Positions 5,741 to 60,800 of a stretch of 64,000 nucleotides of DNA are shown one piece after another. Source of the stretch: Vicugna vicugna (taxonomy: Eukaryota); the NCBI GenBank assembly GCA_013265495.1, contig MU058009.1, positions 1 to 64,000 on the forward strand, given 5' to 3'. Under the pieces are notes generated by a model. That model saw nothing but the letters and a program-made list of their open reading frames with translations, ran no database searches and had not been told where the DNA came from. Position 1 is the stretch's first letter. The number at the start of each line of letters is the position of its first letter. The translations under genes and the position numbers were made by a program.

Positions 5741-5883
5741 AGGGGGTAGGGTATAGCTCAGTGGTAGGGTGTATGCCTAGCATGCATGAGGTCTTGGGTT
5801 CAATCCCCAGTACCTCCACTAAAATAAACAAACAAACAAACCTAATTATGTCCCCCCTAAAAAAGCAAACAAAATTTTGTTAA
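5741..5883 (+). mobile_element. tRNA-derived SINE (camelid Vic-1-like) inserted in an L1 fragment
   Basis: gggtatagctcagtggtag (A box)...ggttcaatccc (B box); 12-bp TSD aaagagtagttt at 5728-5739 and 5884-5895. Confidence 0.9.
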
Positions 5884-6872: not shown

Positions 6873-7987
6873 GTGAGTGGATGCAGACTCCAAATTCCAG
6901 GAGGCTGCCTGGCCTGCATATGGGCCCTGGAGAGAGGCAGGAAGGCTGACGACAGGGGCTCCTGCCTTGACCTTGGTGCCCAGAGGCTCTGTGGGGAGCA
7001 AGAAGAGGAGGCGTCCATCAGGGAACCTTCAATCCTCTGGCTCACGGGTTTTCCAGGTGTGCTCAGCTCCTCTTCCCAGCCTGGAAACTACTGTGCTGAG
7101 TGCTTTACACTGTGTCTCTTGTCACCCACATCTTCAGAACCATTCCGAGGAAGGAGCCAAGCAGAGAGAGCAAACAAATCCATCTCCAGAACACCAGACT
7201 TTCTATCCCTGTCAGAAGGGGACAGCTGAATTGAAATCATCTAGAGTCCTCACAATATACCCGACACTCCATTATCTCAGTTAATCTTCAGCAACAGCTA
7301 AAATACAGATGAGGAAATGGAGACAGAAACTGACTTGCTTCAGATCATACAGAAAGCAAACAGCAGGTCCACAGTCAAATCTGTGCCCGACTCCAAAGCA
7401 TGGTTCTGAGTCATTCAGCTCCAAGCTCTCCAGGAGCTCTGAGCAGTGGCCGCCTCCCACACTTTACCCATTTAGCCACAAGCTCGGGTTTCTCAGGACC
7501 AAACACATGCCAATCCCTGCCCCTCTCTCCCTCCCATAATGGGGAGCCCCTTAATCGAAATCCATCTCCCCTCAGTGCTGAGAGCGGGTTTGGGAACTAA
7601 TCTTTACCAGCTTTGCGTCGTTCTACTTAACAGTCTCACAGGTGGTTGACTAGTCAGCTCGTGGGAAGTTCTGGTTAGGATAGGCTAGGGTTACCACGAA
7701 TCAAAGGGCCTGGAGCAGGCAGTCATTCTTCCCAGTCAGGCTGGTAAAAACAGCCAGAGTTCTTGTCTTTTTTTTTTTCTTCTCCTCTCTCATATTGTTA
7801 TACTAAAGTTGTTTGTGTGTTTTTTTAATTATTGAGGTATAATTGACATATAACATTCTATTAGCTTCAGATATACAACATAATGATTCCATATTTGTAT
7901 ACATTGTGAAATGGTCACCACAGTAAGTCTAGTTAATGTCCATCATCATACATAGTTACTGACTTCTGTTTCTTCTTGTGATGAGAA

Positions 7988-8112
7988 CTTTTTTTAGGGG
8001 AGGTGGTAATTAGGTTTATTTATTTACTTATTAGAGGAGGTACTGGGGATTGAACCCAGAACCTCCTGCATGCTAAGCATGTGCTCTACCACTTGAGCTA
8101 TACCCTCCCCTC
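7988..8112 (-). mobile_element. tRNA-derived SINE (camelid Vic-1-like) nested in an L1 3' fragment (~7820-8220)
   Basis: Same SINE body; perfect 17-bp TSD tcttcttgtgatgagaa at 7971-7987 and 8113-8129. Confidence 0.92.
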
Positions 8113-8416
8113 TCTTCTTGTGATGAGAAATTTTAAGGTCTACTCTCTTAGCAGCTTTCAAATATGCAATATGGTATTGTTAACTATAGCGGACAGGCTG
8201 GACATGACATCCCCAGCGACTTATAAAACAGCCAGAGTTTTATGTATCCCCAAACCTTTAAAGACAAGGGGGACTTTGGGGCAAGTCCGGAAGACTGTAC
8301 ACACTAGCAGAGCAGCAGGTGTGGAAATAAGGTGGGCAGGGGAGATGGGTAGGGTCCTGCCTGGGTGGCTCCTCCCTGCTGTGCACTGGGGGCCTGAGCA
8401 GTGTTTCTCCCCGCAG

Positions 8417-11059: not shown

Positions 11060-13900
11060 TTTAAAGTGAGATATAATTGACATATTAGTTTCAAGTGTAC
11101 ATGATTCGCTATTTGTATATTTTGTGAAAAAATTTTATTTTTAATTACAAATTATCTTATTACATATGGAAGGACTAAAGAATAGTATAATGTATACTCA
11201 TGTACCCAACACCCAGCTTAGAAGCAAAACCTTACACTCCCCATTCTCTTCCATTCTCCCGCCGGAAGTCACCACTATTCTGAATTTTGAATGCGTCATT
11301 CTTAGCTGTTCTCTAGGAATTTATTACACATGTACGCAGCCCTGACTACATATTTACTTCTACATGGTTTTATACTTTACATAAATGGTGTTATCTTTAT
11401 ATTCTGCAAAATCCTTTTTATAAACCATGTTTGTAGGATATGTGTTGATGCGTGTAGCTCCAGTAAGCTCACTTTGATTCCGTTATGTAAATAGACCACT
11501 GTTTATAGTTGCACATTCTTTTACAAAAGGACACTTGGTTGTTTCCAGTTCTTTTGCTATTAAAAACAATGAGCCTATGAACATTTTTATTCTTGTAAAT
11601 GTTTCCAGGAGCAAGATCTTCTAGAATTTAGTCTAGATAGGGAACAGCTGGGTAGTCAAGAATACACATCTTCGGTTTTGTTAAGACGATACTAAATTTT
11701 CTTCCAAATTGGTTGTGCCAATTTTTGTTCCTACCATTTGTGTATAAGGGTTGCCACTTTTTCATGTTCTTGCTAACACGTAGGATTATCAGATTTTTAA
11801 ATGTTTGCTAATCTGGTGGGTGAAAGCTGGTATCCTATTGTCTTAATATTCTTTTTTCCTTTTGCCTTTTTTATGAAAAAAATTTTTTTTCTACTAAATG
11901 AAAGAGAAAGTTTGATGAACCTTCATATACCTATCATCCAGTTTCAACCATTACCAGAGATAAGTTTGTATTTATTACCTACCCATTCCCTCCCCACCAG
12001 ATCATTTTGAAGTAAATCCCAGGTATTATTTTTCCTAAATATTTAAGTATGTATTAGTAGTTTTTTTTAAATATGACCACAATATAACAGCATATTTTAA
12101 AGAACAGAAGTTTTATTTTTTATATAAAAACTTTTACCTATTACTTTGTAGTCTGTGCTTTTTGTGTGTTCTTTAGCAAGTCTTTCCCTATTCCTGTATT
12201 TTCTTCTCGAAGTATTTCACATTTAGGTCTTTAATCCAACTGGATGTTTTATTTGAGTTTGTTTTTGTTGTTATTCCTCTTGGTGTATGAGTCAGAGAGC
12301 CATTTGTTTTTCCCATTTGAATACCCATTATTTACTGACTAGTCCATCCTTCCCCCCACTGATTGTGATGTCACTGCTGTCACGTTGTCATACTCAGGGG
12401 TCTAATCCTGGGTGTTCAGGCTCCTCTCTGTTCGTGCATCCGTGTGTCAGTGGCTTACTGACGGTGGTGGTTAGTGAGCCTCAATAAACCTGTCAGTCCT
12501 CCCATGCCTCTTACTCATCAAAATCACAGTTTCTTTACTCTTCCATGTAAATTCTTTATTCAGTTTGTCAGTTGCCAGGAAAATGCCAATTAGTGTTTTA
12601 TTGGATTTACATTGAGTTGAGATTAATTTGCAAAGAATAGATGTTTTAATGATACCAGAATCTTTCGCACCAAAAAAATGGTATGTCTCCATTTATATCT
12701 TTAAATGTATTTCAATAAAACTTTGTAAATCTTTTCCATATTGGTTAGTCTCGTGTTTTATGAGATTTATTCCTTAGTACTTCATATTTTCTATTGCTAC
12801 TATAAAGTGTATTTTAAAAATTATATTTTTTGTCTATTACTGGTAGAAAGGATTGCATTTTTCATATTGACCTAAGCAAACTGCTGAATTATTTATTCTA
12901 CAAGACTGTAGGCTTTGTTGGGTTTCTATAAAAAACAATCATATAATTTGCAAAACAAAACAAAAACTATAGTTTCTTGTCTTTTTCTGCTGCCTAGGAC
13001 TGCCAGTAAAATGTTGAAAGTGACAATAGTAGCTATCTTTGTCTAAATCATTATTTTAAAGGAAATGCTTCAAATATTTCACCACTACATGTGACATTTG
13101 TTGTAGATTTTCGGTTTGGTACATGTTTTTCAACAAGTTGTAAGTTTACTGTTGTTCCTAGTTGATTAAGACTTTTACCTATCTTGAATAGGTTTGAAAT
13201 TTAATACAAAATTTCTGCATCTACTGAGATGATGTGGTTTTCCCTCTTTTAAGTGGTTACTGCAGAGAATAACGTTAGATTTTCTTGTGTTAAGCCAGCC
13301 TTTCATTCCTGGGGTAAACACAAACTGACTGTGATGAATTATTACCTTTCTTACAAATCACAGGATTCAGATTGCCAACATGTTCTTTAGGATTTAACAT
13401 CTATGCCCGTATGTAGGATTGGCCCATAATTGTCCTTTCTTGTGTAATCCTTTTCTGCTTTTGTTACCAGTTCTACCAGCTTTCTTCAGAAATAATTTTT
13501 TTTGAGAGGGAGGTAATTAGGTTTATTCATTTATTTATTTTTAGAGGAGGTACTGGGGATTGAACCCAGAACCTTGTGCCTGCTAAGCATGCGCTCTACC
13601 ACTTGAGCTATAGCCTTGCCCCTAGAAATAATTTTTTTTTAGAAATAATATTCAGTGAAGAAGTAAAGCTTGGAATTAATTGTTAGACTCCTCTGTAAAT
13701 CCATTTTAGCCTAGCATTTTTTGCAAAGGGTTGGGGGAGGATTTAAAATCACAGTTTCAGGGTCTTAAAGAGTTATAGATCTATTTAGATTTTTCATTTC
13801 TTCTAGAGTCAATCTGGTATACAGTAAATAGTAAAGAATAGAAGACTACTTTACACAGATTTTTCGGTTTGAATTCGTGGATCCCACAGGCAGTATGAAT
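11060..13900 (-). mobile_element. Old L1 fragments (antisense)
   Basis: T-rich, with L1 ORF2/3'UTR antisense motifs (gtttccagttcttttgctatt; aaaggaaatgcttcaaatatttcaccact; tctgcatctactgagatgat). Confidence 0.75.
13500..13623 (-). mobile_element. tRNA-derived SINE (camelid Vic-1-like)
   Basis: gaggaggtactggggattgaaccc...ctctaccacttgagctata; TSD agaaataatttt at 13488 and 13624. Confidence 0.9.
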
Positions 13901-20735: not shown

Positions 20736-23589
20736 CTTTAGACACCATCTGTGTATATGGGTGGTGCTCACTTTCATTCCTTCATCTGCGACCTCTCCAA
20801 GAACTCCAGGCTCATGTTGAAATCAACACCTCTTTGGCATCTCTATTTGGTGATCTCACAGGTCAGGTGTGAGAATCAGATGTGCTGTCTTTAGAAGCAC
20901 TTAGCACATATGATTATTCTGATGCACTGGGTGCTGGGAAGTGCTGGACACTGGAGCTTCAGGCATGAATAAGATGCCATCTCTGCCTTCCCAGTCTTGT
21001 TTGGGGGAGGGGCACCCCCCAAATTATTATGAAAAGGGAGAAGTAAACCTCTCAGGATTGGGTCTCTGCCTGATGGAGGGAACAGTGGACCTTGAACGTT
21101 GGAGCCACGTCAGTCTCATTTCCAGGCCCCAGCAGTCAGCCAGACCCACGTTAGGGGCTCAGTAAATGACCCGTGAAGAGTGAACCCACAGACCTGACCA
21201 CCTCTGTTTTGCCCTGTGGACTGAACATTCCACAGCCACAAGGTGGCAGCAAGGCCAAGGTCTCTTTGCTGCCGGCTCCTTGGCCCTTGTCTGGAGCCTT
21301 CTCAGCCTTGCCTCTCCAGTCTCAGTGGCAGAGTCACCAACTCATTTCTAAGCTGGCCTCTCTCATGATTTCTTTTGGTGTTTCTCCATTCTCTGGCAGA
21401 TTTCTTCTCCTTTAGCCTGAGGTTTTGCAGTCTCCTGACTTACCCCTTTCAGAGTCTCAGCTGACCACCAGAGGCTGTTCAGTGAGGCACTCTCGGACCC
21501 CCACCCTGTTGACATAACAGAGCACAGGCGTCAGAGTTCAGCCCAGCCAAATGCTAACAATTCCTCTTGGTGGGGCCTGGGGCGACGTGCTGTTTCTGAG
21601 CTTTAGCATATAGTGCAGGGGTTAGGAGCAGCCTCGGGTCGGACATACCTGGGCCGGGATCCTTGCTTCGCCATTTACGAACTGCAGAGACTCGGAGTGT
21701 CTTTGTTCATCTAACAAATAGGAAGCGCCCGCCGCGTGTCCGGTGCTGGGTCGGGTGCCATGTGCGCCCCGGTGAGGACGTCACATGTTACCTCTGTCTT
21801 TGGGGGTGCAGTGGGGAAGGCAGACGGCAAACAAGGCGACACACGTCAACCCAGCTGTGAGCAGGAGAGGGGCTCCTCGGGCTCTCTGCACACGTGCCTC
21901 CCAAGCTGTGGCCTAAAGGGTGGAAAGGAGCCAGCTGTGCAGAGAACTGGGTGGGGGGGGTGCGGAGAATGTTCTGGGCTGAGGGAGCAGGACGTGTCCT
22001 GGGGCAGGACAGAGGAATAGAAAGGAGGCTGTTAACCGGAAGCGTGGGTGGGTGGGTGGTGACTGAGGTGTGTGACCCAGATGAAGGTGAGAAAGTGGCT
22101 TCAGTTATTTTCTTATTAAATTAGGTTAGTAACTGAACCTCCATCAGGATGGCTATGAAATAAATGAGACAAGAAAGGGTTTTATACAATTTTTTAGCCT
22201 CTACCCAAAGTGAGAGATGTATTTGACATTGTGACCCAGCAGAAGTGAGTAGATTTACACGAATACACAGGGAACAAAAAGCTCACAAAACAGTACTTAG
22301 CCTTACTTCATGGGACACAATCTAGTATTCTCATCTTAATTCTAGTCTTGTCTGTTTCCTTTTTTATAAATGCTGGTCTTAACCTTCTAAATTAATTTCA
22401 TCACCGCCACCATGGGCTATGACCCACTGAGATAAGGTGTATAAAACACTTTAGGACAGTTGCCATGTGGCGTGCGTTCAAAAAGTGTTAGTCATTTTCT
22501 GTTGTTTTCCCACTGATAAAATTATACGAGCCTTAAATTATATGTAACATATTAAAAAATCCCAGGCCTCAACCACAGACAGGTTATCTTTGTTCTCCCT
22601 GTGACTGTGGCCGAGGTGTGTGAGGGCTGAGGTGGCCAGATGGCTGGCGTCTTCACGCCATCCAGGCAGGGCAGAGCCTGGGTCACCGCCTCCTGCTTCA
22701 GCTCTCAGGCCTGTGGCCTGTCAATGGAGCCCTTTCATTGAGCTCTCTTTCCTCTAACCTGGGGAAGAAGGGGGGAGATAATAGGGAGAGAGGTGTGGCT
22801 CATAAATCCAGACCCTGTCTGAAAAGGCCATTGTTTTCCCTGCAGGGGTGTGGAATCTCAGGTTCAGGGCGGAAGGCTCCTGTGTGTGAGTCAGGCCAGG
22901 CCAGGGAGCAGAGGGACCCTGGGAATCACACCTTCTCTTGGCTGCAGGGAGCTCTCAGTGCTCCCGCCATGCCTGGTGTTCCTCCTGTGCTCCGAGCCGA
23001 GGCAAAGCCGGGGTTCTGGAGCCCCGAGTGAGGCCTTGTCTGGGAGAAGCATTTTGCAAGACTGGCCACTCCCAAAAGAGTTTCCCTGGCAGCATTGTTC
23101 ATGATAGAAGAACTAGAAACAGTCTAGACAACAACTAACAGTAGCCTAGATAAGCAAATCCTGCGCTGGACACCTCTGCGCCGGTGGAAATCAGTGAGCT
23201 ACAGCTGCACACGTCAGGAAGGAGTCCCCCGACGCAGAGCAGGGAAAGCAAGACGTGCAGGGCGCACACTTATTCCGGTCAGGGAAAGCTGAAAAACAGG
23301 CCGACCTAAACAGCACGCTGCTCAGGGACGCACCTGTGCCTGATGAAACTAGGGAGACAGAAAAGGAGTGATTAACCCCAGTTCTGCAGAGGGATTGCTC
23401 GTGGTGGGAGCGGGGCAGAGAGTTCTGTAATACTTCTTTCTTAGACTACACACTCCATGCGTCGCTGTTCTTTTATTTTAGGTCTTTAAAAGGTATATAT
23501 TTTATATTTAAATATGTATATATGTGTATATGTGTATACATGTATGTGTATGTAAACTATGTGTTTATGTGTGTAGACACCCACATTGG

Positions 23590-23727
23590 TTTTTTTGTAA
23601 TTTGTTTTTGTCAGGGAGGGGAGGTAATTAGGTTTCATTTATTTTTTAACGGAGGTGCTGGGAATTGAACCCAGGACCTTGTGCACGCTAAGCACGCACT
23701 CTCCCGCTGAGCTCTACCCTCCTCCCC
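23590..23727 (-). mobile_element. tRNA-derived SINE (camelid Vic-1-like), more diverged copy
   Basis: ggaggtgctgggaattgaacccaggacc...gctgagctctaccctcctcccc; flanked by acattg(g)tttt; adjacent (TA/TG)n at ~23495-23575. Confidence 0.85.
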
Positions 23728-25079
23728 TACATTGTTTTATATGTACAATATGTGTTCCAATTAAAAATTAAGAAAAACTGACAGGTCCTTAGGAAAACTA
23801 AGGACATTCCCCCACTACATTTTGGAGCTCTGCCTGCATTCTCAGGTTTGGTTTCTAGTCACTGTTGCTGAAAGTATTTCATTAAGGCCCCTTCCTTTGG
23901 CTTTTGGGCAGTAGCACACTTTCGTCTCTGCTCCACCTCTTCTCTGGGGCAGAGGGGTGGCCGGGTCTGACCCTTGCTCTCTAGTGGACAGGGGAGCCCC
24001 ATGCTGTGCAGGGACTCAGGACAGTGCCAGCCAGCAGAGTCAGTGGCTTGTGACCTCCTCCAACCACTGGAGGACAGGGCCCGGTACCAGGCTCTGTGGC
24101 TCCACTCCAGCACAGACTGGCACGGCCTCTCACCCCATCCCCTGCCGGTGTCCTCGGCAGCCCTCCCGATGCAGCTGAGCCAAAGGATGCGAGCTGTCTG
24201 AACAGTGACCGGCAGGGCAAGCTTTGCCAGGCAGGTCTCAGCCAGGACACCGCCAGAGCGCCGTCATCATCCAACATGGGAAATACCCCAGGCTTAGGGC
24301 CCACAGACACCACCAGGCCCAGCCATGGCATTGTGCTGGGACTCAGTTTCTTAAATGAAAAGTAAGGAGTTGGGGGCTTCTGCGTCATGTGAGGTCATAG
24401 AATCGTTTCTCAGCTTTGAGTGGAACACAGAGGTGATCTAGTAATGTAGTTCTTACCTAGAATTACTCATCAGAATTGCTTGAGGTGTTTTCTTGAATAC
24501 AGAACCTGGACCGACTGATTGAGTCTCTGGGATAGGCTGGGGCATTTATCAGAGTCACACAGTGATGTGGTCATTTAGTCAAATAGCACGAGGGCTGATC
24601 TGGACGTGTGCAGGCTCTGGTACCACTCTGCCCAGCTCTGGTTCTGCCTTCCAGAAGTAACTGCTATTAGGAAAATTTCTAGTGCTTCTGGTGGTTTCTT
24701 CCAGACACTTAATTGAATAATGTACTTAAGCAACTCTTTCTTGATTTATCAAATTTTGAGGTTATCAGTTTCCCACAGTGGAAGATGAAAGGCTTAGCTG
24801 CTTTGTACTTTTCTCACTCTCCCTCCTCAATTTTTGATGTTTATATTATTATTTTCAATGTTTTTTTTTTAATCGCCTCTGGAATCCTAAATATACTGAA
24901 ACCATTAGTCCTTGTTCCATGTACTCGAGGTCGAATCACTCTGTCCAAGGTGAGTATGGTGAGAAGCCTCCAGTCTTCCCTTTCCAGCGCCTCTTCTGTC
25001 CTTTACTGTCCCCCGGCTTCTCTGTTAGCCATCCTTGTATCTTATAGCTCCCCATCAGCCCTGAGATCATGAGGGCAAG

Positions 25080-47861: not shown

Positions 47862-49663
47862 GTGAGCCACCTTGGCTGAATCCACCCTGGAGCCCAGAGG
47901 AATTACATTCCGATTCCAGTGTGTTCTGGGGCCCCTTTCCTCACCCTTCCCAGACGTCCATCTCTGGATGTCCATGCGGGGGCCCATGAAGGCTCTTGGT
48001 GGACTCGCAGGACCCTTGTCCCTTGTCCTGCCCTGCCCTCCATCTCTACCTTCAGCCCCCTCTCCACCCCACACAGGCCCTCCTCAGCCTGGCTTCCCGC
48101 TTTTGCTCCCTGCCGTTCTCCTGCAGGTTGCATCTGGGATGCCCTCCCATCCCAGGATTACCTGCCCTGCTTGTGACAGCCACGTGGTGCTGGACACATT
48201 TCTTGGTTGATAGTCCACAACCTGACGCATGTCTACACGTCCCTCCTCATCTTCCTGGAGAGCAGAGACGTGAATTATCTAGCACCTGGCATTCTAGGAT
48301 ACTTTCCTCCTGGGGGATTTGCTGAATTGAATGAAATAGCGGGGTGTAAAAGGAGCCCTGGAGGTGAGGGGAGATGGAAGAAGAGAGCCTAGAATCTTGG
48401 ACACTGGTCCTGGTTCTGACACTGTGACCTAGCCCGCCGGGTGCCCTCAGGCAGGGCACTTCACCTCTCTGGGCCTCAGTGTCTGGAAGGGATCCTCCTG
48501 AGCCTGCCATTCTGCCTGGTTGTTCTCAGCCGTGCTTCCGCTCTGAGGAATCAGGAGATGCGGCCCCCGTGCCAGAGCCTGCAGTCACCAGGGTACCCAG
48601 CAGGGGACAGGCTCACCTGTTTCAACCAGGGTGGTTCCAGGGCTCCGACACCGACCTGCCAGTGGGGCTCTGCCCAGGGCGACCCTCCCTGCACCTCCAG
48701 GCCCTTCACCTCTGAGCCACCCTCGTCACTGTGCCTAGCCTGCCTTCTCTCCACTCACCCGCAGCACCGTCTCCCTGGCTGCCTTTGTCTCTCTCTGGAG
48801 TGACCCGTTTCTCCGCTGAAACGGCCCTGGATGGCTGAGCACGGCGTCTTTCTCTCCAGAAGATGCCAGGCCAGCACTCCCACCGGAAGCCCTCTGGGTG
48901 CCCTGGCCCTGGTGTCACCCTGCTGCCAAGACCCCCGGGGGAGCTCCACATGGCAGCATAGGGTACAGTTCTGGGGTGTGCTGAGCCCACTGAGGCCCCT
49001 GTCTTTTTCTCTTCACCTCTGATGGCCTCAGAGGTTTGCTCACAATGGAAATGAGTCTCGTAGTAATCCTGAAGCGGGTTGGGTAGAAACAGCTCTACCC
49101 CTGAGCAAGTTTGGGGTGGGCGGAGGGAGCCGGGGCCACAGTCGATGCTTTCCTTTCCCGCCAGGAGTCCAGCGAGACCTTGCGGCTCACAGTCGCCTGC
49201 CCGAGGCCCCTCCCCTGTCCTTTCTCTTTCCCCAAGCCCCAGGCAGCCCCAGTCCATCTCCTGGTGTCCCTGCTCCACTCTGTTCCGTACTGAGAGGGAG
49301 AACAAGGCTTCCTCCTGCCGTCTGGGTGATTTAAGTGCCGGTAAATCATCCGGGGGAGGACGGGCCCCACGGTCTTGGGAATCTGGGCCTGTCCTAGCAG
49401 TGGGACTTCCTAGATGGCCAGTGGTGACTGTTGAGGTTTTACCATGTGGGAGGCCGGTCCAGGCTGCCGCCCCCTTCCTTTGGGAGAAAGCGCCTCCGTT
49501 TTGCTGCTGTCACCCGCACTTGCTGACTCCCTAGATTGGCAGAGAGCCGTGGGGAGGGCTTTGACTAGATGTCCAGAGGCTGGTCGCATCGCAAGCAGGA
49601 GGGGGTTCTGGTGCTGCTTTACGGGCAGCAGAGTGACCCCCTGTCACTGTCCTCTCTCGCCAG

Positions 49664-49930
49664 GAGGCCATCCTGCAGCGCTACCAGGTGAGGGCTGACC
49701 GCCTCCGTGTGTTCCTGCACTACCTGCCCTCCTACTACCACCTGCACGTGCACTTCGCGGCGCTGGGCTTCGAGGCCCCCGGCGCGGGGGTGGAGCGCGC
49801 CCACCTGCTGGCCGAGGTGATCGAGAACCTGGAGCACGACCCTGAGCACTACCAGCGGCGCACCCTCACCTTTGCCCTCAGGGCCGATGACCCCCTGCTC
49901 GCGCTCTTGCAGGAGGCCCAGAAAAGCTGA
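49664..49930 (+). CDS. DCPS: DCPS exon 6 with the HIT catalytic motif
   Basis: [31 protein letters not shown]...LQEAQKS*; joined CDS 1014 nt = 337 aa. Confidence 0.97.
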
Positions 49931-50047
49931 TTCCCCCGCCCCAGGCCGTCTGGAGAAAAACACTGATGTGGGCGGGGGGTGGGATTTTTAGCACCAAGTG
50001 AATTTTTTTTAAAAGTGTATTTTGTACTGGCTTCTTCCCAGCATGAG

Positions 50048-50053
50048 AATAAA
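50048..50053 (+). terminator. DCPS: DCPS proximal polyadenylation signal
   Basis: AATAAA 118 nt after the stop, upstream TGTA motifs, downstream GU-rich tract (tttggtgtggcc). Confidence 0.8.
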
Positions 50054-50804
50054 GTGTCGGTCTCATTTGGTGTGGCCTGCCGGTGTGGCCTGGGGAGGTG
50101 GAGTGGGCAGAACCCAGCAGGGAAGGTCTTGAGTGGGGGCGAGTGTCTGGTGGCGGCTGCAGCCGGCTGGGAGGATGCAGGGCTCCCTCTGGGTCCCTGT
50201 GCACCTGCCCGTCCTCGCTGACTCCCGCGTCCTGAGTCCGACTACCTCTGCTTTCACTCCTGCTGCCATGGCCCTCTTCCTTCTTCCCACTTGCTGTATC
50301 TTTCTGTTAGTTTTCTGGGTTCCTATATCTGGGAGTTTCCCCAAAAAACCAAAGACGGAAACTTTTTGGAAAAAAAATCTATCAGTTTTTTTTGTGGTAC
50401 TTCCTCTTTCCCTTCCCATTGAGCATTGAGGTCACACTTCCCGCATGTGAGCCAACCCCGCTGATAAACTCCTGTTGACAAGGATGGAAGATCGCCTCCT
50501 GGAAGGAGGAGGGCTTTAATAAGAATCAGGTGACATAAGCCCCAGAAGCCTGCCTTTGCTTCCATTATTTGGTCAGTGAGTCCCTGGCCTTGAGTTCATT
50601 ATCTGGGCAGGAAGACAAAACAAACTCACACGGAGCAACCAGAAGAGCAAATACAAAGTGTCTCAGCAGGGCAAAATGACATGGTTGCAGTGGAGTCCAA
50701 AAGCCCTGAGGGGCAGGGGTTCAAGGTGTGACCAGCGTCATAGGTCCCCGTCCAAAGAGTCTCAAGGCCAGGAAGGGACTTAAAAGTGTCCGAGGCTGAT
50801 GGCT

Positions 50805-53256
50805 GCAGGGAGCCATCAGGGGCTTATCTGGGCAAGGTGACATCTACTACTGCTCCAGCAGAGCAGGGACACGGGCGCGGCGGATGTTGAGGGCACGCAG
50901 TTAAACACGAGGCCCGCTTTCCGGCACCGGGGACAGATGCACGTGCTGGTGGAGAGGGGCTGGCATCTGCTCCTTAGTCAAGGTGGGGCTGCGGGCTCCT
51001 GGGACTGGCTTTCTCATGATGCTCTACTCAGAGGAGGCAGGAGGTGGGGTCTGCAAAATGGAAGCGGGAGGAGAGCTGAGGCGGTGGAGGGGTGTGGCTC
51101 TTCTGCTCCCCTGGACCGAGAGCCAGGAGGCTGGGTTCAGAGCTGAGCTCCGGTCCTTTGTTCCTTACGTGTTTATTAGACATGTACTACAGGTGAGGCA
51201 CCGCCCTGGATGCTGGTCCGTGCTCTCCTCCCGGGGTCGACATTCACCCCAGAACACCGTCCCAGACCCAAGGCATCCAGAGCCTGTTCCTGAGCCTTTT
51301 TCTTTGTAAAGGGGAGCAGGGGTGAGGATCCGTGATCTGCTGGGTAAACATCACGTGGGACCATGTTGCTTCCTCTCACACTTTGACTCACTGGCTGACT
51401 GGTCCTGACAGTGTCCTGAGCGTGGGGTGCAGAGATGACTAAAATGAAGCTCCCGGCCTCCAGGCCAGTGGGCACGCAGACCGGCGAACTTAGGAGTTAA
51501 AGGAGACAACACAGGGGAGGCTGCCCTGCAGACAGGGCTGCCCCAGGCTGATGTCCAGAGTGGGCTTTTGGAATCTCAACAGCATTTGGCACAGTGGCCC
51601 ACCCAGCGCGCCTCCAGCAGGAAGGCCTGAGTGAAGTGGGGTGTCGAGGGTGCTGAGGGGCCAGTTGGAGGGAGAGAGCTGGGAGTGGGGCCCTGAGGCG
51701 GGAGCCAGCTTCCCCCGCCAGGTGGGGATTCCGGCCAGAGAACACCCGGCTGGCTTTGAAGGGGAGCCCTGCTTGTCCTTGTCATCCGTGTATAAGAAAA
51801 ATAAAGAGTTGGGAGGTCTGAAGAGGACCTCCTCCTGAACTATCATGAAAATAAACGAGGCCGATCAGAGGAGTGGAGGGGACACTAACCTAGAGAGGTT
51901 CCTCTTGGCAGAGTGGAGGGACTCCATCCTGGGAGTGTCCTCTCGCCCCTGACAGATCAAGTTCTGTCAGCGAGGGTCTCATCCGGCTTCACACGGAGGG
52001 TGAAAGTTCAGGTAAGACTAACAGGTGGCCAATCCTGGACCAACAGGAGGACAGCCAGGATGGGTCTCTTAACTCCCTGGAGCTGTGCCCTGTGAAGGCA
52101 TCCCCGGCCTCTCCCGCCTTGACTCCCTGGCAGATCAGTGCCTGATCTGCCCCATCTCCCTCCTCACATGTTTGCTCATCCATCCACCAAATACCTACCA
52201 GCGTCTCCATGGACCAGCACTGCAAAGTGCTGATGGGAACAGGAAGGCAGTACGACCTGTGGATGGTACCCTCCAGAGGCGTGGCTCAGTGGGGCTGGTG
52301 AGCAGAGGACAGGACGGGACAGGACGGGAGTTAGGGGCTGATCTAGAGGGAGGCTCGGTTTGCTCCCTTGCAGGACTGGGAGGCAGAGATGATGCTTGTG
52401 TGTCAGGACCCACTCTGCTTTTCAAGGGGAAGAGAGTCAGTTCTCCCCCAGAGCCTGCAAGAGGAGTAACTAAGACCCAGGGAGCACCTGCAAGCCAGAA
52501 ACTGCTCTCAGAGAAGACGTCCGGCTCAGCCTCCTGCCCCCAAAGCCCCCAGCAGTGTCTAGGGTCACTGCCCACAAGAATTGTTTGCATTTACTCTGGG
52601 AAACGGCCAGTTGGATAAAAGGGGCCTTGGTGATGGACCTCGAGACTCTCCGCCTGAGGTAGACTAACTTTGTCACCACTGGGAACCGTTCCTTCACTGC
52701 ATCTCCATCTCACCTGAGTGGTGGGACTCTGGAAGAGCTGCAGGGAAGAACTGGCCGAGTCAGGAGGCCAGTCGCTTTGTTATGCTTCTTCTGAACTTGT
52801 GTCTAGGTAGTCTCTGTCCACGGGGATCCAAAAGCAGCTCCCTCCATCACAGCATCTTGGGCCCGGAGCAGGTGGCGGCAGCTGGACCAGCACCTTTCAC
52901 CTGCAAGCAAAGGAGCTCGGCTCTGAATCCAGTCCAGTCTCCTGGTTCTCAGTCCAGAATAAGAGCCACCCACCTCCTCAGCCTCAGCTCTCCTGCTGCT
53001 TTCGTTTTGCAGAACCCAGCCTCCTCCCTCCTCTGAGACAGCATCGTGAGAAAGCCAGACCCAGGAGCCTGAAGCCCCACCTTGACTAAGGAGCAACCCC
53101 AGCCCCTTTCTGGCAGTGTGTGCATCTGTTCCTGGTGCTGGAAAGAGGGTCTTCCGGGTTTTATTGCGTGCCCTCAGTGTGCCTGCCTGCGGCCCTTCTC
53201 TGCTGGAGCCGTGGTAGATGTCACCCTGCCTGGATAAATCCTGGATGGCTCCCTGC
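50805..53256. repeat. Long imperfect inverted repeat: arms 50805-51151 and 52912-53256
   Basis: Arms align as reverse complements over ~345 bp, including a perfect 23-mer (50968-50990 / 53073-53095). Confidence 0.93.
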
Positions 53257-56200
53257 CACCTTCCCAGCTTGGTTGGGGAGGGGAGGGAGTGGTGGGAGGC
53301 TGGACTCCTGTTGCTTGGCTCCTCTCAGTTTGCCCAAATGTTTCCTCACAGAGCAAAATTGCTGAGAGTTCTACATTTGTCAACATTCCTTCGTGAAACT
53401 GAGAAAAATAACATTTCAGGACAAGTTGGACAGTGAGCTCCACATTGCCTGTTTTTTGTTGCCTATATAGATCCTGGAATGGAGAAAAAAATTAAGAAAC
53501 AATTACATACCAAGTGATACTTGAAAATATTTCTCTTGTAATACTTCTATATCCTAAACATTTTAATGTATCTATTTTCTTTCTGAATAGGTTCATGTTG
53601 GTCTGCTGACTCTTCTCAGAAAGGACTAAATCTTTATTTCAAACATATGTATAGAATGCTAAAATGTCCTTTGTAAGAAGATGGTGATAATTAACAGTAC
53701 TTGTTTTTTAAATAGCTTTGCCTAGCAAAATTAATGTTGCCAACCCTACAGTTGTTCTATATTATTACTGAAATTATATTGGATTCTGAAGTTTATATAA
53801 ATTTGAAGCTACCAAGTTTTAACCACTGATAAAAAAATAAGCATGGGCTGTATTTGTTTAAAGTGTTTCAATTCAATCAGCAGGTTGTAAACATCTACCC
53901 TACTTTTTTTTTTTCGTTTTTTAAGCAACTCTATGGACATAGAACTCTCCTGGAGCTTACCATAGTGAGGAATGTAGGTACAAAGTAATTCCACGAGTGG
54001 AAAAGCACAGGGGGCTGTGGGAGCTTATGCCAAGAGAAGCCAGACTTCTGGGCTAAAACTTGACAGCCAAATGGCCAGCTGAAGCCAAAACCCAGCAGTC
54101 AGGGAGACCATGGCTCAGCATGGCTGGGACCTAGAACTTGGCTTCTAGCAGGGGGCACACACATTGAATAGCACCCTGGCCAGTTTTCTCTTCAGGACCA
54201 TGAGGAAGAAATGAAAGTCAAGGCTAAAGGGGGAAGTTCTTAACTTCTGTTCCACCTCCTTTGGAGAGCCAGCATGTTGTGATGATTCCGGCAGAGGAGC
54301 TGCATCATAACCAGATATGATCTTGGGCAAGTCCCATAACTGCTCCTAAACTAGGAGTGATAGCAGTGCCCACCCTGAGGGGTTTGGCGAGGATTAAATA
54401 AGTGAGTTTTGTGGACATACTAAGAGCTCATAAATGGTAACTGCTATCTTCCTACTGCAAGAAGGGCCTAAAGGTTGCGCCCAGCGATATTTGGGTTAGA
54501 TGTTTAAAAGGATCTCTAGATTAGAAGGCCGTGAAATCCTAGATTATGTAGTGGAGTCATGGCAACCAAGAGACTTTAACGCAAAAAACAAGCCACAAAC
54601 TATCTGTGGTTAATTGCTTATGGCCCCCAAAAGAGACAAGAATTGTGTGCAATGACTTCTCGGGATCTCTTCCAGCCTACAGGCTCCTGGAATGCATTTT
54701 AGGCCTGGCCTACCAGCCGGTTTCTAAGACTACAATAGTGATGTCCACTGCTATTGAGAACCCTGGGAACTGCTCAGTTCCAACGTCCAGCCATATAAAT
54801 CTGATAAAAATAGGAGCTGAAACACCATCCTGGAGTTGCTATTTTTAAAAGCGTTCTGAAATGCCGGATTGGGTCTGTTTCTTCCTCAAACAGCATCCTG
54901 CCGTTCCCTCCTCCTGGTGGGCAGGATGCTAACATGGCACGTGTGAGGGATGGGGGCCAGAAGCCTGTGAGGGACATGTGTCAAGTAGCTCGGCGCCTGC
55001 TACCCACACCCCTGCCTGCCAGGGAGGAGCCGCGGGCCCTGGGCCCCCCAGCTCCAGATGCAACTGCCCCTCCCACGCCCCTTGTCCTCTGCCTCCTCCC
55101 TCTGCTCCAAGCGAGGGCCCTCTGCTGCCCCAGCAGAGCGGTGTCCTCCACTTCCACCACAGCAGAGCCAGAGCCAGAGAGGTAAGGGAGGGGGGCAGAG
55201 GAGGTGGGAATGGAGGCAGCATGGCTGAGAAGGGGACCAGAACCCAGACCATGGACCCTCAGGTAGTCTTCCTGCAACCTTTGCACAGCTCACCTCCGAC
55301 AGGGCGGTCTCAGGAGCCAGAGTCCTGCTTGCCCCACCACATGGCCTCTTGCTGAGCAACTCAAAGTGCCTTGCAGATGGGCTGAAGAGGGGCTGGAGAG
55401 GCAGAAGGGGCTCCAGATGAAAAGTACCAGAATCCTCCTGACCCACGGATGACGGGTTCTAGGCGGCTAGGTCAGCATCTGGCTGTGCCATTGAGAAGCT
55501 GGAGGGGAAAGATCATGAGTCAGCACATTGTGGCCTGAGGGGAGAAGTCAGGATTACAGTTAGCTTCTGGCAACCAGTCACCAGGCCTGGGATAAACTGG
55601 AGGAGGGCGGGGATAGGAGATCTGAATGCAGCTTATAGGACAGAGGGGGGATTCCACCCGTGGAACAACAGCACACACTTACATAGCACCTTGTACTTCC
55701 AGAGCAAATTCAGGTCCACTGCCTGAGTTAATACTTACAACGGCCCTTTATTATTTTTTAAAATTTTTTAAAATTTTAAAATTTTATAAACTTTAAAAAA
55801 TTGAGTTATAGTCATTTTACAATGTTGTGTTACAGCCCTTTAAATTAGCACACTTATTTCATTTTCTTCTAGTAAGAAAATTAAAGTTATTTAGTGACTG
55901 AGGCAGAGTTGGAAATCAGGTCTCCAGGAGCAAAAGTGGACCCTTCTGTTCTGTTTTCCCACAAAGTGACTCTTACATGGTTCACAGCGAGAACTGCCAA
56001 CTGTGTGGAGATCTAGTTGACTGAAGTGCAGACGCTGGGCTGTTTCTCAGCTCAGCACTGCCAGACTCGCCCGGTCACTTTGGGTGGATGCTCACTCCCT
56101 TCAGGCCAGGTTTCCCACCTGTACGACAGGGAAGCGATTCCATCTTCCTCTAGCCTTACCCAGGGCAGGGACTTAAGTCATTGTGTTCTTTCTCCCTAGC

Positions 56201-57072: not shown

Positions 57073-57410
57073 CGTGTGGGAGAGCGGAGAGCCCTTTGTT
57101 GGGTCTCATTGTTCCCAGGAGGGTGTGCAGAGGCTGCGCTGGGCACATCCATTCTGGTGCCACTCACAGGCTGCGCCCGCCAGAGCTCTCCCCTCACCCC
57201 ACCGGCCTCCTCTCCCGCCCCTCCGCGCCTGCCCGGTCGGTCGACCCCTCCGCGCCCCTGGCTGCCGGGCCCCGCCGCCCGCCCTCTCCCCCGGCCTCCG
57301 CGGCTCCCGCACCATCCCGAGCCGCCCGGCAGCGGCCCCGCCCGCAAGCGGGATAGCCCCTGCCCTTCCTCCTCCTCCACCCCGCCCTTCCTCCTCCACC
57401 CGCCTGCTCC
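57073..57410 (-). ncRNA. Candidate first exon of a divergent GSEC/ST3GAL4-AS1-like lncRNA
   Basis: Minus strand carries a GGGGTGGAGGAGG...AAGGGCAGGGG G-rich motif and a donor ACG|gtgagc at 57073/57072; positional equivalence to human GSEC is inferred. Confidence 0.4.
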
Positions 57411-57800
57411 CCAGTCGGCTCCCTGGCCGTGTGCGCAAGCGTGTCCGGCCCCTTCCCCGCCCCGCGACCGGGCCCGGGCCCGGGCCCCCGCCTCCCAGCA
57501 GGCGGACTCGCCCGCTCCCAGGCCGGCCCCGCGCCCGGGACAGGGACCCGGCCGAGCGGAGCCGCCGCGCCAGCGCCGCGCCTCCAGCGCGAGCGCCTAG
57601 CGGATCGGAGCTGCGCGCGGAACTGCCCTGCCCCGCCCCGCTCCACCCGCGAGGGTGAGTACGCGGCGGCCCGGCCCGTGGGGCCCGCGGGGGAGGGCGG
57701 GGACGGGCACGTGGGCGCCGCGCGGGGCCGGCTCCCGGGGTGGCGGGGGGGGCGGCCACAGCCCCGTATCCCTTTCTCTGGACCGCTTTTCGCGGGAAGC
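57150..57800. promoter_or_regulatory. ST3GAL4: CpG island; probable bidirectional promoter of ST3GAL4 and an antisense RNA
   Basis: Dense CpG, many GC boxes; splice donors point outward on both strands. Gene name is from the known TIRAP-DCPS-ST3GAL4 order; no coding exon is recognisable in the window. Confidence 0.7.
57500..57654 (+). other. ST3GAL4: Probable non-coding exon 1 of ST3GAL4 (start approximate)
   Basis: Strong donor AGG|gtgagt at 57654/57655 inside the CpG island; no ATG upstream within the island core; synteny. Confidence 0.6.
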
Positions 57801-60800
57801 CGCTTCTCTTTGCTCCCTGGGAGTGCGCGAACAGGACGGTCCTCTTCTCTGGAAAGTTTCTAGCCGCTACCCCTGCGCCCAGGCTGGAGAGGCGTCCCCA
57901 CCTTCAGCCGCCTCTGAGCCATGGTTTCTCCCCACAACTGCCCTACCACGTCCAGGAGATCCATGGGCTGGCTCTGCTGGAGGTGACAGGCTTTGCTGGG
58001 TCCTTCTGTGTGCAGGAGTCCCAAGGTCGCCAAGAAGAGCCCAAAGGAGGGGGTTGCTAGCTGAAGGCTGGCCATGTGAGGACACCAGGTCCACGTCGTG
58101 GGGGTCTTTGGGCCTAGGCTACTGTGCCTCAGAGCTGCTTGGCTGGTGGGCAGTGGGGAGGGATGGGGTTGGGGTGAAGGTGGAGTACAGAGGGGCCAGA
58201 ATCCATGGGCGCAGCTGTCTGCTCCTGGTGCCCCTTGGGGGCCCCTGCCGGCAGGGACCTCCCAGGCATCCTAAAGCTTCCAGCACGTCTGCCCCCTCCA
58301 CTCCCAGTCTTGGGGGAGGCTCTGTCTGGGCCATCCGGGGCCTGATCTACTGCTGCTGCTCCCTCTGTCCCACAGACTGGATCCTGAGGGCCAGGGGAGG
58401 GGGCTCCTACCAGAAGGCTGGGGCTCTAGGCAGTGTCCGGGTGCCCAGCTGTGCCCGTCTGACCTCATGACCACCCACGGGCTGGCACCCCTACAGGCTT
58501 CTCAGGGAAGCCTGTGCTTTCCACCGCCAGGGGAGAGGCACAATGTGGAAGCCAAGTTCAGGCTGACTTATTCTTTGCGGAACCTTGGGAACGGGCCTGG
58601 TCTGGCTAGGGTGTCCCAAGAGGCACAAACCAATGCCGCGCTCTCCTGAACGGTGCTGCTGTGCCGCCCACCAGCTCCAGGCCTCGGCCCTGGCATCTGT
58701 GGGGAGATCGTAAACGAGCTGATAGGTGCTGAGCGCTGTGGAAGGTGTCTGCGCCAAGGCAGAGGTATGTGTGTGTCTGCTGTTAGCAGTGTTTCTCTCA
58801 CACTCTCATTCCAGAGCTGCCCCATAATTCTAGAGAGTGTGCCTGGGAGATGCCAGCTGTTTGGGGCCTAGAAATTAACTTCTGGGGTGTTTTCTTGTGC
58901 TGGGAGCTGTGAATACCTCCTACCTGAGCCGAGGTGGCCCAGGTCCCTCCGAGCTGTTCCCGGCCCTGCTTTTGTCTCCACTGGGAGTGCTCTGGTGCCT
59001 CGTCCTTGAGCACCAGTGTGCTAGGTGGGAGATCTGAGGCTGTTCCCTGGGTCCTGGATCTCCCTCTTGCAGCTGAGGGAGAGACAGGAGTGGGGACCAT
59101 CCCCCACCCAGAGTCCAGGTTGACAGGAGTTAGGAGCAGAGGGGTGTTGGAGAAAGGAGTTCAGAAAGTAGAGTGAGTCTCCTGCTTGGGACGCGAGCTG
59201 AGAGGCATCTGTGGTTGTGGTGTGAGCTGCTGCTCGTGGCCACAGGGCCCCTTGCCGGTGAGTGGAGGCCCAGCTAAGGAAGCCCTTGGTGCCTTCTGGG
59301 CTGTCTTCCCTTCCCTCCCCTCCCTTGCCCGCTTCCCTACCCAGAGCACTGCCTCAACCCCCACTCCTCAGAAACGGAGTTCTTTGGTCCTTCCGCCCTC
59401 CCAGACCTTTTAGAGTCCTAGGATCCAGTTTTCTGGGCAGAGCCGAGAATCTGCTTTCAGAATTGTAACAAATCCTGAAAGGACCCTCCCTTCTCCAGCT
59501 GGAGCAGAGTGGCCAGACCTTCCTTCCTGTGTCCCAGCTTAACCTGTGGTCATATGTGGCTAACCGCCACTGGCCTCGCCTCTGCCGTGCACCGGCTGCT
59601 CACCCAGGCCCGGTCTGGGCACATTCTGGGTGAATTCCTCCTCTCAGAGCAGCTTAAAGGTTTGCCCGCGCTGTCTGGGGGAAGGGGGACCCTCCACCTC
59701 AGAATCATACAGAATGGTTCCAGCCCCCGGGGACGCAGAGCCCCTGCCTCCTGAAGGGGACCCTTCAGATCAGTGTCCCAGAGGGTCCCACAGTGTGAGG
59801 CCCAGACCTACAGACTGTGGCCAAGGCGGCCACCAGAGCCCGCTCCTCGGGGGAGCTGGGGAGCAGGGCACCCAGAAAGCAAACAGACCTCCCTCCTGAT
59901 TCCTCAGCTGCCCCGTGGCTACGTGATTCCCTGCAGCCGATTCCCTGCAGCCGCTGGTTGGTTTCTTCTGCCCCTTGCCCTCAGGGTCCTTCTTGCTTCT
60001 CAAGACTCATGGCCTTGCCCTGAAATTTTTGGTTTTCTTGAGGAAATGACTAGGGCATGTGGGTTGCGCTGGCTGTGGTTATTAATTCCCCTCTCTCATT
60101 TGTCACCCCTTCCCAGAGGCCCTCAGCACTTTTGCATGAGTGTTTTGAGTACCCCTGGAAGGGCTGCTGGCCACCTCTGGCCTCAGGTTTGTTTCCTCCT
60201 GACCTCGACTGCATTCCCTGTGTCTGTGTGTGTGTGTGCACGCTGTGACGCACTTTATTCCACAGATGGAGGAAGTGGTCAAACGTAGCTACAAGTAGGA
60301 GCAGCTGTACATGATGCCTGGGCCCCAGGCAGGTGCCATGGGCCCCCGACTGGCGCCCATGAGCCTAGCAGGCGGTGGACTCTGCCAGGGGTGTGCTGGG
60401 TTGATTGCTCTTCAGAGTGAGGAAGGCCATTCAGAGCTGCAGGTTTTCTTTTAGTCTTGGCCCCTTGCCTGGGGACCAGGAGACCTACTGCTGGATCTCT
60501 GCCTCCCCACCCCTTGCGAAGGCACCCTACAGAGACAGGAGGAGACCGCTCTGGAGCCTGAGGCCCTGGCTGCTGCCGCAAGCCCCGCAGGGAGGAGGGC
60601 GCTGCTGCCCGGGCTGTGGGGTGTGCTTCTGGGCTTTGAGGGCGAGGAAGGCCTGGGAGTAGGATGGTCCCTTCTTCCTGCTGGCAGCTTCACTCCAAAA
60701 CCTGAGTGGGTCAGGGGCTCCAGGATCTTACCTTCCCCGGGGAGGTGGGGTGGGGAAGATGGTTGTGCGCAAGAGGACAGAGAGCGGTTTGCAGAGGGCT

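Follow-up and report, generated by a model that had tools for sequence, protein, structure and literature searches.

A single-copy inverted repeat downstream of a DCPS-like gene in Vicugna vicugna with an excess of G.U-type over A.C-type differences between its arms

ADAR edits certain inverted repeats in mammalian 3'UTRs, for instance pairs of SINEs in opposite orientation inside annotated transcripts. The inverted repeat studied here resembles them in that its opposite arms lie past a stop codon, within a few kb of each other, and have a predicted long duplex with mismatches. Those repeats, however, are abundant SINE copies, whereas the arms described here are single-copy, and a canonical poly(A) signal precedes them by 757 nt. 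In plants, hairpin transgenes have been engineered with substitutions that reportedly give G:U pairs and keep the RNA duplex. There, as at our locus, one-arm substitutions disrupt the inverted-repeat structure of the DNA, but the plant hairpins are designed constructs, whereas ours is a natural mammalian locus known from sequence (PMC9263138).

The hpRNA and endogenous siRNA loci of Drosophila are likewise described as spacer-separated inverted duplications, a few hundred bases in size, which form a long imperfect duplex on one strand; they are transcribed, cut into siRNAs and match target genes, whereas the present locus is known from DNA alone and has no third copy in the genome (PMC10317233, PMC10292708). 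Transcription-associated mutational asymmetry provides a further comparison. One study reported that the excess of A>G over T>C extends into intergenic DNA downstream of mammalian genes, and explained the excess of C>T over G>A by the single-stranded state of non-template DNA and by R-loops in GC-rich stretches (PMC2927911). The direction (on the non-template strand A>G and C>T are in excess, also past the 3' end) is the one seen at our locus, where the region carries the matching G+T skew, but the asymmetry in that report is modest, with a C>T/G>A ratio of about 1 beyond the first 1-2 kb of transcripts, whereas the arms here differ by 28:5, most strongly at CpG sites (PMC2927911).

Geometry, setting and copy number of the inverted repeat

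The window analysed is a stretch of 64,000 nt from Vicugna vicugna (contig MU058009.1, positions 1 to 64,000 of the forward strand). An open frame on the + strand at 49637..49930, with its stop codon at 49928-49930, is the last coding exon of a DCPS-like gene; its DcpS_C domain (PF11969) was matched at 49664-49792 with 35.9 bits in one search and 37.3 bits (E = 4e-9) in another. The AATAAA at 50048..50053 on the + strand is followed by a GT-rich stretch and is likely the main poly(A) signal of this gene. The left arm of the repeat (50805..51151, + strand) is 347 nt long, with a GC content of 0.63, 136 G against 83 C on the + strand and 14 CpG. The right arm (52912..53256, - strand), the reverse complement of the left, is 345 nt long, with a GC content of 0.59 and 7 CpG. 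Between them lies a spacer of 1760 nt (51152..52911), assigned to neither strand, which is unique in the genome and carries AATAAA on the + strand at 51800 and 51850; these two hexamers and the one at 50048 are where the first-pass annotation had placed them. Sialyltransferase exons at contig positions 84608-89459 belong to the next + strand gene. Its promoter may be a CpG-island-like block without assigned strand (57101..57900), which lies about 3.85 kb beyond the right arm.

The repeat had been described as two arms of about 345 bp, reverse complements of each other and about 1.76 kb apart, and formal alignment bore this out. When 50760-51200 was aligned locally with the reverse complement of 52870-53300, exactly 50805-51151 against 52912-53256 was returned, in 337 columns with 283 matches (84%) and 10 gaps covering 18 nt. 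Gapped blastn gave 79% over 355, the repeat search found six collinear inverted blocks, and the divergence of the arms was about 0.18 substitutions per site. The perfect 23-bp core noted earlier was present both in the repeat search and in the sequence. It is uninformative, because a perfect run of at least 23 arises in 63% of simulated alignments with equal length and identity (P = 0.63).

We then assessed copy number. A search of the whole 2.03-Gb assembly with the left arm returned two candidates, both of which were the arms themselves, with no third copy, and the 3.5-kb unit 50300-53800 had no further match in the assembly. Because the unit occurs at one place in the 2.03-Gb assembly, the arms belong to no transposon family, as had been supposed on first inspection. 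Copies of like divergence would have been seen, because the same search recovered the 79%-identical partner arm; much older copies could escape it. The arms and spacer contain 13 stop-to-stop frames, and Pfam gave no match for any of them at E <= 0.1, neither a transposase nor another element protein. The searches thus showed neither the extra copies nor the element protein expected of a transposon with terminal inverted repeats or of a pair of transposon copies. By eye, no direct repeat adjoined 50798/50805 and 53256/53263, where the arm ends are blurred by divergence.

The Rfam search gave no match above threshold in the arms or spacer; a pRNA match at 52468-52554 on the - strand was taken as noise (24.4 bits against a gathering score of 34, E = 0.1). 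No target gene with homology to the arms was found, either as a third copy in the assembly or as coding similarity in the Pfam search. We looked for orthologues in metagenome contigs: an exact scan with the 23-nt core yielded 0 stretches, and a scan with the C-terminal peptide of the DCPS-like protein yielded 597 pattern-matched stretches, none of them confirmed. A literature search on DCPS, ST3GAL4 and inverted repeats gave nothing relevant among the matches listed.

Mismatch bias and its comparison with other repeats and the region

To classify the differences, we read the left arm against the reverse complement of the right arm. The results showed that 28 transitions were of the type that would pair as G.U in a + strand RNA (G/A 19, T/C 9) and only 5 of the type that would give A.C (A/G 3, C/T 2), together with 21 transversions. 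Among the 33 transitions, 28 vs 5 departs from equality with a two-sided binomial p of 6.6e-5, close to the manual count of roughly 25 vs 3 in the first-pass annotation. Four scoring schemes gave 28-31 G.U-type against 5-9 A.C-type differences (p 6.6e-5 to 6.8e-4), and removal of three gap-adjacent sites left 25 vs 5 (p = 3e-4). The bias peaked at CpG sites (17 vs 2, p = 7e-4) and was 11 vs 3 elsewhere (p = 0.057). Thus 17 of the 28 G.U-type differences stand at sites where CpG is the inferred ancestral state, whereas C precedes only 14 of 135 G of the left arm. By hand tally, the CpG-site bias was found in both arms (right 10 vs 1, left 7 vs 1).

The predicted duplex was more stable by 69 kcal/mol on the + strand (-584.9) than on the - strand (-516.1). 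When the whole 2452 nt were folded at minimum energy, the arms paired together, with 309 pairs in the + strand fold and 285 in that of the - strand. An asymmetry of G.U pairs is reported as an accepted indicator of the reading strand in structured RNAs (PMC1892782).

We compared the arms with other inverted pairs. Seven same-locus pairs had z between -0.9 and 1.7, and 50 cross-locus pairs reached a maximum |z| of 2.98, against 3.9-4.0 for the arms here, so that 0 of the 57 pairs reached |z| = 3. The z-scores of repeat pairs in the genome are over-dispersed (sd 1.26), and for this reason the nominal p rises to about 1.5e-3.

The regional strand asymmetry was next considered. The composition of the window is typical of a coding strand for the + strand, and the DCPS-like gene and the next gene both lie on that strand. 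The gene region had a GC skew of +0.022, a TA skew of +0.062 and a TG/CA ratio of 1.12; the downstream region had a TA skew of +0.079 and a TG/CA ratio of 1.25. The spacer showed no TG excess (TG 138 vs CA 131), unlike its two flanks (74 vs 54 and 138 vs 111). By our own calculation, the regional skews give a combined rate asymmetry of only about 1.2, against 5.6 in the arms; the chance of at least 28 of 33 would be 3e-4 at p = 0.55 and 2e-3 at p = 0.60.

Neighbouring repeats leaned the opposite way, with + strand C>T plus A>G at 16 and G>A plus T>C at 32, in a control that is weak: five of its six SINE copies point the same way, and the majority pile-up does not retain the CpG sites. This control comprised 8 copies in 84 kb of the contig, all outside 26.1-68.7 kb, and was read against a majority pile-up made with 200 kb of randomly drawn genome. 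SINE subfamily states, for example the common CATGCAC form, blur its CpG sites. At three CpG-derived positions of the control, a count by eye gave + strand TG 8 vs CA 3, a count that is unreliable. The share of sampled words from 49500-54500 (24 runs found) was 0.96-0.98 in six DNA-type runs and 0.21-0.32 in five runs recorded as RNA; these shares carry no weight on transcription, strand or editing.

Constraint on pairing and explanations of the bias

If the duplex were maintained, changes that break it should be scarce. The transition/transversion ratio of the arms was 33:21 = 1.57, against 1.47 in neutral repeat pairs of the genome (1100:747, pooled over 60 cross-locus inverted repeat pairs passing filters) and 2.0 in the local repeat control. 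Pair-breaking changes were not depleted, with 21 transversions and 10 gaps in 337 columns. Because the total ratio is neutral-like, transitions look redistributed between strands and not filtered. A model with a neutral ratio and a free strand bias fitted better, by 2.5-4.9 lnL, than a filter acting equally on A.C mismatches and transversions, the best version of which keeps 0.39-0.54 of disruptive changes. Given 21 transversions, the 5 A.C-type differences are too few for such a uniform filter (P = 0.012 at a ratio of 1.47, 0.0012 at 2.0). No pairing constraint on the arms was detectable.

Our leading explanation, which we hold tentatively and to which we give slightly less than an even chance, is that the repeat is an old, neutral, single-copy local inverted duplication with a + strand transition bias that chance has inflated. 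A local event would have left the two arms of about 345 nt and the 1.76-kb spacer in the intergenic gap, after the poly(A) signal of the DCPS-like gene and ahead of the CpG island of the gene that follows. The arms would then lie in the termination zone of the DCPS-like gene, where + sense transcription probably continues past the poly(A) site and through both of them. Cytosines on the non-template (+) strand would be more exposed and the template strand better repaired, and C>T and A>G would fall preferentially on the + strand. Such unequal transitions would leave an excess of G.U-type differences without selection on pairing, and the size of the excess is probably exaggerated by chance and by the choice of a locus that looked biased.

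The direction agrees with this explanation, since both genes lie on the + strand and the regional skews run the same way. The neutral-like ratio, the better model fit and the lack of visible constraint also argue for it, and the make-up of the G.U-type class, 17 of 28 at inferred CpG sites in both arms, is that of ordinary methyl-CpG decay. The size of the bias does not agree: it is far past known asymmetries, with 17 vs 2 at CpG sites, whereas C>T/G>A is reported at about 1 outside the first 1-2 kb of transcripts (PMC2927911). The modest regional skews, the spacer without TG excess, the opposite lean of the neighbouring repeats (a weak and confounded control) and the lack of any comparable pair among the 57 point the same way.

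Strand-biased mutation was weighed against selection on an RNA hairpin. Here, as the first-pass annotation proposed, the arms would pair in a + strand RNA, selection would tolerate G.U and remove A.C, and the duplex would serve as a substrate of a dsRNA-binding protein; a read-through transcript of the DCPS-like gene, a long 3'UTR isoform or a separate hairpin transcript could be the carrier. This is possible, though we judge it rather improbable. It would account directly for 28 vs 5, for the peak at hypermutable CpG sites, where a filter would show best, and for the bias in both arms, which is unmatched in the 57 inverted pairs and unexplained by the regional skews. The more stable + strand duplex, the pairing of the arms in the minimum-energy fold, the single-copy, non-transposon nature of the unit and the use of G.U asymmetry as a strand indicator (PMC1892782) are also consistent with it. 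Against it, the 21 transversions and 10 gaps are undepleted, though they disrupt a duplex no less than A.C does, the uniform filter fits worse, and the total ratio is neutral-like. A canonical AATAAA with a GT-rich downstream element stands upstream of the left arm, no third copy offers a possible target in the assembly, and no Rfam family matches. The within-sequence evidence for a + strand duplex maintained by selection is thus split. In its specific form, a read-through hairpin of the DCPS-like gene that a filter open to G.U and closed to A.C would have preserved over tens of millions of years and that poly(A) choice or read-through would switch on and off, the proposal is unlikely; judged from the hexamer positions, a switch by alternative polyadenylation is only a possibility.

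It is also doubtful that chance is the whole cause, that is, that 28:5 is the tail of a near-symmetric process in a neutral relic, noticed for being striking. The statistic was picked after the locus had been seen, the over-dispersion of genomic repeat pairs weakens the nominal p, and the transition/transversion ratio, gaps and 23-nt core all look neutral. Nevertheless, the nominal p lies between 3e-5 and 3e-4, the lean is shared by CpG and non-CpG sites and by both arms, and 0 of 57 comparison pairs reach |z| = 3.

Damage at the birth of the duplication is very unlikely. In such an event, a template switch or break-induced synthesis would have kept one strand single-stranded for long enough to be deaminated in a burst that was then fixed; break-induced replication is reported to make such clusters via single-stranded DNA (PMC6765108, PMC13438675). 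The largest class does consist of a single type (19 differences with left G and right A, against 3 of the reverse), which is what would follow from a strand-coordinated cluster of C>T changes in one arm. However, reading CpG as ancestral puts + strand C>T in both arms (right 10, left 7), the changed G is followed by G in 8 cases, by A in 3, by T in 4 and by C in 4, as composition alone predicts and with no APOBEC-type context, and subtracting a burst of about 14 leaves a transition/transversion ratio of about 0.9, too low against 1.47.

Three further candidates were rejected. An ADAR-edited retrocopy is contradicted by the 5' neighbours of its 19 candidate A>G positions (C in 11, G in 5, A in 3, T in 0), since the 5' preference of ADAR runs in the reverse order. 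APOBEC-type editing was set aside because a GG/GA context, present at 11 of 19 sites, shows no enrichment over the roughly 58% expected from composition. Arm-specific GC pressure (biased gene conversion, or one unmethylated arm) does not suffice by itself, as it would make left G/right A and left C/right T similarly common, where 19 vs 2 was seen.

Were the bias mutational, the locus would still be of use: in an inverted repeat the ancestral composition of one arm cancels that of the other, so that strand-asymmetric mutation can be measured with an internal control. If chance made the bias, the locus is an ordinary relic. If selection made it, the locus would be a rare single-copy long hairpin RNA in a mammal that was not built from transposons; tied to read-through of an mRNA-decay gene, it would offer a concrete place for testing how endogenous dsRNA is used or tolerated. 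If the strand-biased mutation that we favour made it, the 17:2 at CpG sites would be a strand bias of CpG decay in a termination zone, far past published averages, and would point to long-lived single-stranded non-template DNA in that zone.

Inverted repeat downstream of the DCPS-like gene

The window spans the opening 64 kb of a contig 4.7 Mb long, which belongs to an assembly of 2.03 Gb and 12,405 contigs. Local alignment of 50760-51200 with the reverse complement of 52870-53300 paired 50805-51151 with 52912-53256, exactly the arms proposed in the first-pass annotation, with a spacer of 1760 nt between them. In this alignment 283 of 337 columns match (84%), and 18 nt fall in 10 gaps. The arms were 79% identical over 355 columns by blastn, gaps counted, and a repeat search returned six collinear inverted blocks across them. 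The perfect 23-nt core described in the annotation is present, and carries no weight because a run of at least 23 nt occurred in 63% of 20,000 simulated alignments of the same length and identity (mean longest run, 25.6). Arm divergence was ~0.18 substitutions per site (JC 0.180, K2P 0.183), which marks the inverted duplication as old.

A whole-assembly search with the left arm gave two candidates, the left arm itself and the right arm, in agreement with the annotation, which did not recognise the arms as a transposon. The 3.5-kb unit 50300-53800 had no further match in the whole assembly. Since the search found a 79%-identical partner, it would also have picked up other family copies diverged to about that degree. 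A transposon origin was rejected, as neither the arms nor the 3.5-kb unit has other copies in the assembly. The arms and spacer contain 13 stop-to-stop frames, and none matched Pfam. For the inverted-repeat region Rfam gave only a sub-threshold match to pRNA (NoRC-associated RNA) at 52468-52554 on the - strand (24.4 bits, below the gathering score of 34; E = 0.1), which is most likely noise. On sequence grounds, this is an old inverted duplication, local and present in a single copy.

We then placed the repeat in its genomic setting. An exon matching DcpS_C (49664-49792, + strand) stays open in frame until the stop codon at 49928-49930. The N-terminal DcpS family (PF05652) had no match in the genome and none in 14 control genomes, so it is uninformative. 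The AATAAA hexamers reported earlier were all located on the + strand: that at 50048, followed by a GT-rich stretch, is likely the main poly(A) signal of the DCPS-like gene, and those at 51800 and 51850 lie within the spacer. The left arm begins 757 nt past the hexamer at 50048, and polymerase usually goes on transcribing beyond a poly(A) site. A CpG-island-like block, a possible promoter for the next gene, lies at 57101-57900 (200-nt windows, CpG observed/expected > 0.6, GC > 0.55), 3.85 kb downstream from the right arm. Beyond the window, the same contig has three exon-sized + strand matches to Glyco_transf_29, a sialyltransferase domain, at 84608-89459; beside the DCPS-like gene, they fit the DCPS-ST3GAL4 neighbourhood of other mammals. 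The inverted repeat occupies the ~7-kb gap between two + strand genes. TTTATT, AATAAA on the - strand, occurs inside the right arm (53160-53165) and 21 nt beyond the left arm's end (51172-51177), so a - strand transcript from the CpG island could end before spanning both arms.

Strand bias of the arm mismatches

Mismatches were scored by reading the left arm against the right arm in reverse complement. Transitions that remain G.U or U.G in + strand RNA comprised 19 G/A and 9 T/C (left/right) differences, those giving A.C comprised 3 A/G and 2 C/T, and 21 transversions gave non-pairs. G.U-type differences therefore numbered 28 against 5 A.C-type (two-sided binomial p = 6.6e-5), and the annotation's count of ~25 against ~3 was essentially right. 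The counts were 28-31 vs 5-9 under four scoring schemes, and 25 vs 5 once three gap-adjacent sites were left out. In folding predictions the arms paired on either strand, with a more stable duplex on the + strand (-584.9 vs -516.1 kcal/mol); when all 2452 nt were folded, the minimum-energy structure joined the arms by 309 pairs on the + strand and 285 on the - strand.

The bias sites were sorted by context, with CpG assumed ancestral. Six sites had CG in the left arm and CA in the right, a + strand C>T on the right side; three had left TG and right CG, a + strand C>T on the left; and four adjacent TG vs CA doublets were read as CpG lost to + strand TG in the two arms alike. Two events ran in the opposite direction (+ strand G>A, one per arm). 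CpG sites thus held 17 + strand C>T (10 in the right arm, 7 in the left) vs 2 G>A (p = 7e-4), and non-CpG sites 11 vs 3 (p = 0.057). CpG-linked sites made up 17 of the 28 G.U-type sites, whereas of 135 G in the left arm only 14 come after a C; this class therefore resembles ordinary methyl-CpG decay in its composition. The oddity is the near-absence of the mirror class.

Candidate causes of the bias

A putative selected + strand hairpin RNA, as the first-pass annotation proposed, is an unlikely cause. Pairing selection is disfavoured on the arm comparison because a filter protecting the duplex should remove every non-pair, yet 21 transversions and 10 gaps remain. The arm ts:tv of 33:21 (1.57) is close to the pooled 1100:747 (1.47) of 60 cross-locus inverted repeat pairs passing filters in this genome and to the 2.0 of a local repeat control; transitions look redistributed between strands rather than thinned. 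Given 21 transversions, a uniform filter would be expected to leave more than five A.C-type differences (P = 0.012 at ts/tv 1.47, 0.0012 at 2.0). In a three-class likelihood, a uniform A.C/transversion filter beat plain neutrality by 2.6-5.7 lnL and was itself beaten by neutral ts/tv with free strand bias by 2.5-4.9 lnL.

Pure chance is improbable as the cause. Seven other same-locus inverted pairs gave z from -0.9 to 1.7, and among 50 cross-locus pairs the sd was 1.26 and |z| peaked at 2.98. The present arms reached z 3.9-4.0, or p ~1.5e-3 after scaling for over-dispersion (sd 1.26). This empirical null also tells against regional mutation as the source of a bias of this size, and is more telling than the local control of eight neighbouring repeat copies, which leaned opposite to the arms (16 vs 32) and is distrusted because five of six SINE copies share an orientation and subfamily states blur CpG sites. 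These ~130-nt tRNA-derived SINEs lie at 1260-1408, 5733-5873, 7985-8115, 13493-13636, 23588-23738 and, beyond the window, at contig positions 71745-71885; a 200-kb sample of random genome had ~15 copies of the family. Recognisable interspersed repeats are almost lacking from 40-64 kb of the window.

A deamination burst on single-stranded DNA when the duplication arose would fit the largest class (19 G/A), and such clusters are reported for break-induced replication (PMC6765108, PMC13438675). CpG-polarised + strand events in both arms, and a ts/tv of ~0.9 once the burst is removed, make such birth-time damage very unlikely. Also unlikely is an ADAR-edited retrocopy, since the bases immediately 5' of its 19 candidate sites (C 11, G 5, A 3, T 0) run opposite to ADAR preference; APOBEC-type editing was rejected for lack of context enrichment at changed sites, and GC pressure on one arm alone was rejected as the sole cause because it predicts G/A about equal to C/T (observed 19 vs 2).

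Possible strand-asymmetric mutation in the region

Our tentative preference, held at a little under even confidence, is for a neutral old inverted duplication whose bias would reflect + strand (non-template) transitions in the termination zone, with a size that chance and post-hoc choice of the locus would have inflated. The direction fits regional mutation because both neighbouring genes are on the + strand and the window has a coding-strand G+T excess. Skews across the gene were +0.022 (GC) and +0.062 (TA), with TG/CA 1.12; downstream of 53257, TA skew was +0.079 and TG/CA 1.25. TG exceeded CA in the flanks (74 vs 54 and 138 vs 111), and the spacer had no such excess (138 vs 131). According to PMC2927911, A>G over T>C continues into downstream intergenic DNA in mammals, and C>T over G>A, which it ascribes to R-loops and single-stranded non-template DNA where GC is high, is found only within 1-2 kb of transcript starts. 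The magnitude does not fit regional mutation, because the skews imply a combined rate asymmetry of only ~1.2 and at least 28 of 33 is improbable (3e-4 at p = 0.55, 2e-3 at p = 0.60). Across the whole window T exceeds A and TG exceeds CA on the + strand (TA skew +0.06 to +0.08), which suggests that + sense transcription may run through the intergenic gap into the upstream region of the next gene.
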